This document shows, piece by piece, positions 8,909 to 9,769 of a DNA stretch of 64,000 nt (within the stretch, counting starts at the first letter, position 1; each line of letters starts with the position of its first letter). The DNA is from Eledone cirrhosa (lineage: Eukaryota), in the NCBI GenBank assembly GCA_964016885.1, contig CAXHJY010001274.1:1-64000 (forward strand), given 5' to 3'. A model generated the notes under the pieces. The model ran no database searches. It saw only the letters and a program-made list of their open reading frames with translations, and was not told where the DNA came from. Both the position numbers and the translations under genes were made by a program.

Positions 8909-9702
8909 TTACATTTAATTACATTTAATTATACATTTAATTATATCTTATATTATATTATTTTAATTTAGTCTATGTTATTTGATTTTAGTTTACCTTA
9001 TTTTATCTTATTTTATGATTATATTATATTATGTTCTATTTTATATAATTTTAATTTTAATTTTATATTATTTTATCTCATTCCTTACCCTGCATCACTA
9101 TTATCTGTATATTTTATATTTTATATGTAAGTTTGTTATGTATTTCTTTATATTTTCTTATATATATTATAAGTCTGTTTTTCACCTATTTTTTACCTAC
9201 TCTTACCTAATCCCATCTATCTTATCTACTCTTGTCTGTTCTCTTATCCATGTGTATGCTTGTATGTAACTATATGTTGACAGCACCCCGCCCAACTGTG
9301 ACTGATAGCACCCCTTATTTTTCATTGCTTATTTTTCATTGTTTATTTTATTATCTTATTTTTATTTTTATTTTTATTTTTAGTTTTATTTTTATTTTTA
9401 TTCTTATCTTTATTTTTACTTTTACTTCCTTAATATCCTTTATCGTCTATTATTATTTTTCATTCTTCAATGTCTTGGATTTGTTATTGCTTGTATGGTA
9501 TGTAATTAACCTTTAAGCTCTGATGAGTCCCACTTATAGTGCGGATGAAACAATGTTAGCAAGTAAAGATATGCATATGCTATAGGCGTTCTTTGTTATT
9601 TATTATATCACGGCTCTGTCCTCAGACATTGAGCTAACCTTATACTGCCTGCTGGATAAGTGGAGTGTTATACACCCCTGATCCTCTCCCTAGTATACTA
9701 TA
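8644..9702 (+). repeat. 5' pseudo-LTR plus tail of family A
   Basis: Direct repeat of 13589-14716. Confidence 0.9.
9511..9568 (+). ncRNA. Hammerhead ribozyme (family A, 5' pLTR)
   Basis: CTGATGA / stem II gtcc-cac..gtg-ggat / GAAAC-aat-GTT / stem I gct:agc and cttta:taaag. Confidence 0.85.
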
Positions 9703-9769
9703 CGGCTCCCACTGGTTGAGCTTAACTTTGATATACGCGGATTTGTGTCCTTGTATATTATCAGGCAGT

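Follow-up and report, generated by a model that had tools for sequence, protein, structure and literature searches.

Initiation of reverse transcription by a Penelope-like element has been studied in vitro for Poseidon PAc from Anolis carolinensis, in which two internal start sites bracket the genomic tail (Frangieh et al. 2024, PMC11167929). According to the cited passages of that paper, both strands of the AT-rich target are cut and extended, a dimer is predicted, and synthesis starts in a stem loop that is AC-rich and lies 111-118 nt inside the ORF, with a tail of 30-40 bp; these passages report no duplicated signal, no end pairing and no reiteration. The element family described here resembles PAc, as read from its genomic ends, in putative internal initiation at two tail-bracketing sites and in an AT-rich target. 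It differs in that these Hydra-type elements have their sites in the leader, each 5' of one of two copies of a hairpin, with tails of 55-167 nt.

For the Hydra clade, the cited parts of Craig et al. 2021 describe units shorter than 3 kb and ascribe tails to the endonuclease, whereas the unit described here is 5.0 kb; the main text of that paper contains 0 occurrences of 'hairpin' or 'stem-loop' (PMC8557442). Non-LTR retrozymes are tandem non-coding repeats that bear hammerheads and are thought to be moved by Penelope-like elements, and in their proposed model a circle serves as template for cDNA longer than one unit (PMC4209133, PMC7229834, bioRxiv 10.64898/2026.07.22.740005). The cited retrozyme passages name no cis-signal for mobilisation, whereas in the genome studied here a hammerhead repeat of ~472 bp carries both hairpins and ends at both sites.

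The analysed window is a stretch of 64,000 nt from Eledone cirrhosa (contig CAXHJY010001274.1, positions 1 to 64,000 of the forward strand), the host genome being 3.0 Gb in size. It contains an element arranged in the order (TA)n, inverted arm, 5' pLTR, leader, ORF, 3' UTR, pLTR with tail and (TA)n, in which the inverted and direct arms overlap by 5 nt (8638-8642). Its features are as follows.

5702..6763, no strand: (TA)n-rich left flank, the target microsatellite
6759..8642, minus strand: inverted arm, a copy of the 3' 1.9 kb, with its terminus at site 1
8638..9702, plus strand: 5' pLTR and tail template, a copy of 13581-14717
9520..9551, plus strand: hammerhead-type core in the 5' pLTR, its core letters seen directly, with a second copy at 14535-14566
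9600..9608, plus strand: site 1, an AT-rich tract holding 46 of 86 family ends
9609..9702, plus strand: tail, the 94 nt separating site 1 from site 2
9613..9634, plus strand: hairpin 1, with a 4-bp basal stem, a 2-nt 3' bulge and a 4-bp upper stem
9642..9651, plus strand: 5' arm of a predicted long helix, pairing with 9762-9771
9695..9702, plus strand: site 2, an AT-rich tract holding 39 of 86 family ends
9705..9721, plus strand: hairpin 2, with basal stem and bulge as in hairpin 1 and a 2-bp upper stem, found in leaders only
9762..9771, plus strand: 3' arm of the predicted long helix, including the AU of the start codon
9770..12259, plus strand: single ORF with a telomerase-like RT, a C-terminal GIY-YIG-type nuclease region and Hydra-type motifs
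13581..14717, plus strand: 3' pLTR and tail, with a copy of hairpin 1 at 14628-14649 and its terminus at site 2
14709..14789, no strand: (TA)n right flank

Judged from its protein motifs, this element is a Hydra-type Penelope-like retrotransposon. It has the single ORF with telomerase-like RT and GIY-YIG nuclease of Penelope-like (EN+) elements, with YRDD at residue 396 and a GIY-YIG-like motif at residue 752, as well as direct and inverted pLTRs with the optional tail. The protein matches the motif description of the Hydra clade in the cited part of PMC8557442: the RWK motif is present as an RWR variant (residue 82), the change from DKG to DKT is found at residue 165, and the CxCX5C linker and the nuclease CxxC and CxH are found at residues 732, 830 and 858. 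Insertion into (TA)n, as in the Hydra clade, was observed for 85/86 family ends. The size tendency of the clade (<3 kb, not strict) is not followed, the unit being 5,015 nt long because of a low-complexity insert and a long 3' UTR. In a fold search with the predicted structure of the ORF protein (pLDDT 78.9), TERT structures ranked first. No Pfam match was found for the protein, and GIY-YIG was weakly matched in 1 of 25 relatives; no relevant Rfam family, hammerhead included, was found at E<=1, the MFE fold contained no full ribozyme, and no relatives were found among viral contigs. The ORF also contains a 78-nt tandem duplication (11264-11422) and, between RT and nuclease, an Asn/Arg-rich disordered insert (residues 524-629), comparable to the Asn-rich inserts described in the cited part of PMC3846280. 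Elsewhere in the window, 56610-61859 (minus strand) is a two-ORF LINE with matches to AP endonuclease, RVT_1 and zf-RVT, older pieces related to it lie at 55795-58258 and 62081-63998, and 35809-38987 holds another repeat element flanked by (TA)n, present at 35809-35998, at 36071-37037 and in copies, whose ends are built differently.

The two motif copies at 9613-9634 and 9705-9721, 92 nt apart, are present exactly as an earlier, sequence-only reading of this DNA had written them. That reading also placed the end of the inverted arm ~4 nt before hairpin 1 and the end of the 3' tail 2 nt before hairpin 2, and both placements hold: the last common bases are 6759, equal to leader position 9608, and 14717, equal to 9702, and the junctions it gave (6761 and 14716) lie inside the TA ambiguity. 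The motif can be written GCUC-stem/loop-U(U/A/C)-GAGC, and the basal stems have predicted pairing probabilities of 0.99-1.0 (hairpin 1) and 0.94-0.96 (hairpin 2). Searching both strands of the element body (4,868 nt) gave 0 matches, versus 0.08 per shuffled body. The pair is not due to chance, because the motif is absent from the body and 85/86 family ends lie at the two sites.

A 24-mer of the pLTR has 477 exact matches in the genome. The ends of the window element's family (family A) were counted from 91 exact anchor matches at 70 loci in genome order, among the first 100 listed, giving 46 site-1 ends, 39 site-2 ends, 5 leaders and 1 other. Site-1 ends lie at -4 from the hairpin in 45/46 cases and site-2 ends at -2 in 36/39, so that 85 of the 86 ends fall 2-6 nt 5' of hairpin 1 (46) or hairpin 2 (39). 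Genome-wide, 355 copies of the family pass from site 2 directly into (TA)n, and another 40 continue into hairpin 2. Hairpin 2 was never found in a 3' end, in agreement with the claim that it is visible only ahead of the ORF. The proposal that priming takes place on a TA tract needs a correction: ends adjoin AT-rich tracts, but a TATA tract is not required, as TATA or ATAT occurs within 10 nt 5' of the hairpin in only 22/42 metagenome hairpins and is absent from site 2 of family B.

Further Hydra-type insertions are present in the window, and related families were collected from the genome. The insertions in the window are listed below.

14790..19432: W1, two inverted arms with a microsatellite block between, site-1 end ~14790 and site-2 end ~19432
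21615..21835: W2, short two-armed insertion (site 1 / site 2), with hairpin 1 at 21764-21787
22075..24081: W5, two-armed insertion, with a long hairpin 1 at 23960-24036
24239..24639: W3, two-armed insertion (no-tail end / tail end)
26662..27126: W4, two-armed insertion (no-tail end / tail end)

In addition, 27932-28110 (minus strand) is the tail of a further Hydra-type family, whose hairpin 1 is long and branched. Among 20 loci picked by protein similarity (66-91% identity), both hairpins are present wherever the leader is intact, and the ends lie 0-7 nt before them. Another 20 loci, picked with a distant protein (~50% identity over full length), belong to families E and F, in which the hairpins are 166-167 nt apart and the tails are longer to match; 30 loci of family E in genome order gave 16 site-1 ends, 13 site-2 ends and 2 leaders. 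Across families the hairpin spacing is 92, 78, 99-106, 137 or 166-167 nt at RT-region identities of 46-91%, and the ends shift accordingly, giving tails of 78-167 nt in this genome. Tail length thus tracks hairpin spacing, as expected from the earlier explanation of tail length by docking position. Automatic calling mis-closed hairpin 1 of families I and N5, and both were left out.

A second hairpin within ~10 nt past the tail end had been predicted for full-length relatives, and this was borne out in relatives chosen by protein alone and in W2 and W5, but not in W1. The leaders of these three families were sought with the tail end plus four motif letters. In W2 (the 21615 family, 396 matches), a complete or near-complete hairpin 2 lies three nt past the tail end in 19/20 loci, and the modal end offsets are -5 (site 1) and -3 (site 2). 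In W5 (the 22075-24081 family, 75 matches), hairpin 2 lies ~8-10 nt past the tail end and closes around an upper insert of ~100 nt, in 10/10 loci each. W1 (the 14790/19432 family, 113 matches) retains a precise site-2 end, but its leader has no canonical hairpin 2 and instead a 4-bp unbulged GCAC/GUGC hairpin 7 nt past the end, which may have arisen by chance or may represent a basal stem that was compensated and lacks the bulge. With 14,713 matches, W1 has the largest anchor count here and is the main exception to the twin-hairpin rule. Alternative site-1 positions 12-20 nt upstream are also used in W1 and W2, those of W2 being due in part to subfamily differences under ungapped alignment. 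Among 291 sequences searched, neither W3 nor W4 yielded a full-length member. Two observations concern the hammerheads of these families: the cores of families C and W2 (L061-L063, L066, L080, L221-L240) have variant first letters, and short two-armed W1 insertions (L261-L290) often join inside the hammerhead 5' stem region, a pattern biased by the choice of anchor, as if both RTs stalled there.

The motif has also been found far outside this genome, in 78 metagenome loci of 32-41% identity that were selected by protein only. The strict motif in sense orientation has 44 matches in 12.8 kb of leader versus 16 in 148 kb of ORF. Leaders of at least 160 nt (n=45) carry at least two copies in 30 cases, one in 11 and none in 4, and no control ORF window (0/201) carries two; after clustering, two copies are present in 21/32 clusters. 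The metagenome hairpins are spaced 55-83 nt apart, have a UU, UC or UA bulge and are usually followed by ACU. Cleanly ending 3' copies stop ~3 nt or less from a hairpin (L301, L303, L310, L324, L329, L335), and several others stop at contig edges or elsewhere. The first upper-stem pair is U-A or C-G in 42/42 metagenome hairpins and A-U in the non-coding families, and upper-stem pairs covary. The basal stem is nearly invariant, a constancy partly built into the motif search, and varies only at pair 1, where G-C changes to A-U only in hairpin 1 of the W families. By eye, three of six published Hydra consensus sequences have a clear motif, one a degenerate motif and two no clear motif; Hydra-1_Ajap has both hairpin copies at its 5' end, the tails of Hydra-2_Ajap and Hydra-2_Amil contain the hairpin, and that of Hydra-1_Crog is degenerate. 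A model built from the sequences of 21 leaders alone aligned, over most of the length of the model, to 7 metagenome leaders kept aside from it, but to few families of this genome. Taken from genomic sequence, the twin hairpins are a duplicated, clade-wide putative signal that predicts the element ends, which map to two sites 2-10 nt 5' of the hairpins. The strand on which it is read did not emerge from two tests, as G-U and A-C counts are 5 versus 5 and strand energies give p=0.83, with no sense-strand signal.

The two hairpins are further linked by a predicted long helix, in which the sequence just 3' of hairpin 1 pairs with sequence past hairpin 2. This helix closes a domain around hairpin 2, is family-specific and, in the families of this genome, ends at the start codon. 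Among 13 genome families, 9 give a shuffle p <=0.02 and the other 4 do not reach significance. For 21 metagenome families, the duplexes average -10.2 kcal/mol with cognate arms versus -5.1 kcal/mol with non-cognate arms (p=1e-11), and the cognate duplex is the best one in 13 of the 21. According to this folding, the long helix would set the hairpins side by side whatever their spacing.

Long arms continue beyond the hammerhead and one unit length, reaching 362-2132 nt into the upstream pLTR, and tandem arrays of elements exist in this genome. Private changes number 9 in 5' copies, 11 in 3' copies and 20 in inverted copies, without an excess in the 5' pLTR. Eleven of the 20 changes in inverted copies come from a single locus, L072 (L072:1225-2510), unlike other elements, and its inverted arm was possibly copied from a second template. 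The template must run on from the 3' pLTR into the leader. Its form would probably be a circle made by the hammerhead, although tandem read-through also fits the DNA data. A circular template has been proposed for Penelope-like elements in the cited part of PMC4209133, and the cited part of PMC11167929 indicates that hammerhead cleavage is not needed by PAc in vitro.

We infer that the hairpins are probably docking sites on the element RNA, and that two RTs start from both strands of cut (TA)n. The GIY-YIG nuclease of the element would cut both (TA)n strands, and one RT would sit on hairpin 1 and one on hairpin 2, kept close by the long helix at any spacing. Each RT would base-pair a 3' end of the DNA to the closest AT-rich RNA, immediately 5' of its hairpin, and may slip back while docked, repeating the first few bases before it escapes. 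The two cDNAs would grow toward each other and then be joined, often via a few shared bases, into an inverted, head-to-head element that has a tail at just one of its ends, and failure of one primer would leave a single arm. The template would continue from the 3' pLTR into the leader.

The pairing of ends within insertions has been counted in several families. Among two-armed inverted insertions, 69/71 have one site-1 and one site-2 end: 24/25 in family A (one unclassified), 6/6 in E, 10/10 in W1, 20/21 in W2, 3/3 in W3 and 6/6 in W4. If ends were chosen independently, about half would be expected, which for the 24/24 of family A gives p=5e-8. The sole true site-1/site-1 pair, in W2, has mirrored host flanks, which suggests that it is the product of a later rearrangement; at the W2 locus L208, the tail was missed by the pattern and the insertion was recounted by eye as non-homotypic. 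Full-length elements with both ends visible are paired in the same way (14/14 and 4/4), with the long arm coming from either site, and one such pair was found in the metagenome (L365). Arm divergence in family A is 0.5% within versus 2.7% between insertions; the difference is less clear in family E and in W1 (2.2% versus 2.7%). At most of the resolved junctions the two arms share 0-12 nt, and the others have short gaps. Single-arm insertions are common, the far end joining the flank directly in ~13 of 24 rows listed; many single arms join (TA)n directly at the far end and others carry a short site-2 arm. In L1 twin priming, two target-strand primers lead to an inverted 5' arm, the second primer annealing at variable internal positions with nothing duplicated. 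Here, in contrast, the two primers would each begin at a fixed site next to that of the other, and two copies are made of the 3' region.

The paired ends and the single arms would be equally well explained if one RT or RNP used the hairpins in sequence, the second DNA end being extended later from the other site, for example when the first is occupied by cDNA, and the hint from L072 that arms can come from different templates points the same way. However, either site can give the long arm, so the order of use would have to be free, and the long helix, which is conserved and would draw the two hairpins close to each other, agrees better with simultaneous binding; sequential use is therefore considered unlikely.

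The ~472-bp tandem hammerhead repeat mentioned above does not resemble the ORF, retains the two hairpins and has both ends in 5/5 insertions, at loci chosen for hairpin 2 and not for end type. It is a retrozyme-like passenger (L101-L111, L117, L118, L127, L130). Other families that appear to be non-coding, in which motifs like hairpin 2 occur without a sense ORF match nearby, were observed at L103, L106, L121, L128, L203 and L206, and at L207, L208, L211, L213, L216 and L218. The repeat bears on the idea that nothing but the pairing of primers with AT-rich RNA tracts sets the ends, with the hairpins serving translation control, ribozyme folding or packaging. This would account for the precise site 2 of W1 without a canonical hairpin and for the use of an upstream TA tract in some copies, and the long helix does cover the start codon in the families of this genome. 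Yet the two hairpins and the two ends persist in a repeat that is non-coding, other TA tracts of the leader and pLTR are unused while 85/86 ends lie at two sites, some sites have no TATA, and the strict pairing of site 1 with site 2 is left unexplained; such a role of the AT tracts alone is regarded as very improbable.

Site 1 also shows traces of repeated synthesis. In family E, the last 9 nt are repeated in tandem, as 1-4 additional copies, at 8/26 site-1 ends versus 0/38 internal copies (p=3.5e-4), with L199 classed as internal and the non-adjacent matches at L192 and L198 dropped. In family F, a dinucleotide is expanded at 6/8 site-1 ends versus 0/12 internal copies (p=7e-4). Up to 16 CT units were observed at site-1 junctions of family F (the L093:8580 region and L205), and these CT runs suggest that the RT is able to create microsatellites. 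Site 2 showed no reiterated repeats. On UA templates, reiteration would be hidden within (TA)n. The reiterated bases would have been made first, because they sit between target and element. Telomerase likewise holds its RT by a structured RNA beside a short template, realigns and adds tandem repeats. The process here would differ in that reiteration occurs now and then (1-5 units, or up to 16 dinucleotides) before the RT escapes to make long cDNA, and in that the hairpin lies 3' of the start and is not a 5' boundary element.

Reiteration fits primer realignment on a held template, which would favour initiation over a trimming process in which the hairpins act as nuclease signals in DNA, a cDNA or DNA intermediate made past them being trimmed by the GIY-YIG nuclease at the AT tract and joined to (TA)n. 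Trimming agrees with the endonuclease-mediated resolution to which Craig et al. 2021 ascribe tails in the cited part of their paper (PMC8557442), with work on a Drosophila virilis nuclease that needed the tail for recognition (cited in the passages used of PMC11167929), with strand tests that do not show RNA-sense recognition and with the likeness of the sites to the target. It is nevertheless judged improbable, as the extra template copies between element end and target, absent internally, fit slipping at initiation, and as the start sites of PAc have been mapped directly to the tail boundaries in vitro, according to the cited part of PMC11167929.

Docking of two RTs is thus ranked first, followed by the sequential use of the hairpins by one RT, then trimming and lastly pairing with AT tracts. 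Several observations count against docking: the W1 exception and the closeness of its within- and between-insertion divergence, the alternative site-1 positions of W1 and W2, the common single arms, the nearly invariant basal stem, the G-U and energy tests that do not show the read strand, the 4/13 genome families in which the long helix lacks significance, the private changes of L072, the 4/45 leaders without and 11/45 with one copy, and the 2/6 published Hydra consensus sequences in which the motif is not clear. In the literature, the start of PAc is placed by the cited part of PMC11167929 within a stem loop that is AC-rich and shares no homology with the cut DNA.

The sequence-only reading had noted that internal initiation was reported for a Poseidon PLE, which is correct for PAc and concerns two sites there, according to the cited passages of PMC11167929. 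Its two-site signal is new as a duplicated signal; two start sites as such were already known. Relative to these passages, the hairpin duplication, the long helix, the end pairing and the reiteration are new, and no paper on any of them was found in the openly accessible literature searched.

A broader interpretation can be offered tentatively, at somewhat less than an even chance. It holds that these elements use a dedicated two-headed integration, in which an RT dimer, bound to two identical hairpins of the same circular RNA, simultaneously primes the two strands of a double-strand cut, so that tail, inverted pLTR and 5' pLTR would be products of one reaction. The docked RT would add telomerase-like repeats and could lengthen host microsatellites, and the two-hairpin module of ~130 nt would act as a transferable signal able to mobilise any RNA, retrozymes among them. 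The origin of Penelope-like tails and inverted ends has been an open question, which the cited part of Craig et al. 2021 names as a next task (PMC8557442), and the only in vitro system, PAc, gives two start sites without a defined signal in the cited passages (PMC11167929). A short duplicated motif that predicts both ends within a few bases makes direct mutagenesis and structure experiments possible and provides a rule for annotating element ends. It is also a candidate cis-signal for animal retrozymes, and the reiterated ends may be genomic traces of repeat addition by an RT whose predicted fold is closest to that of telomerase.
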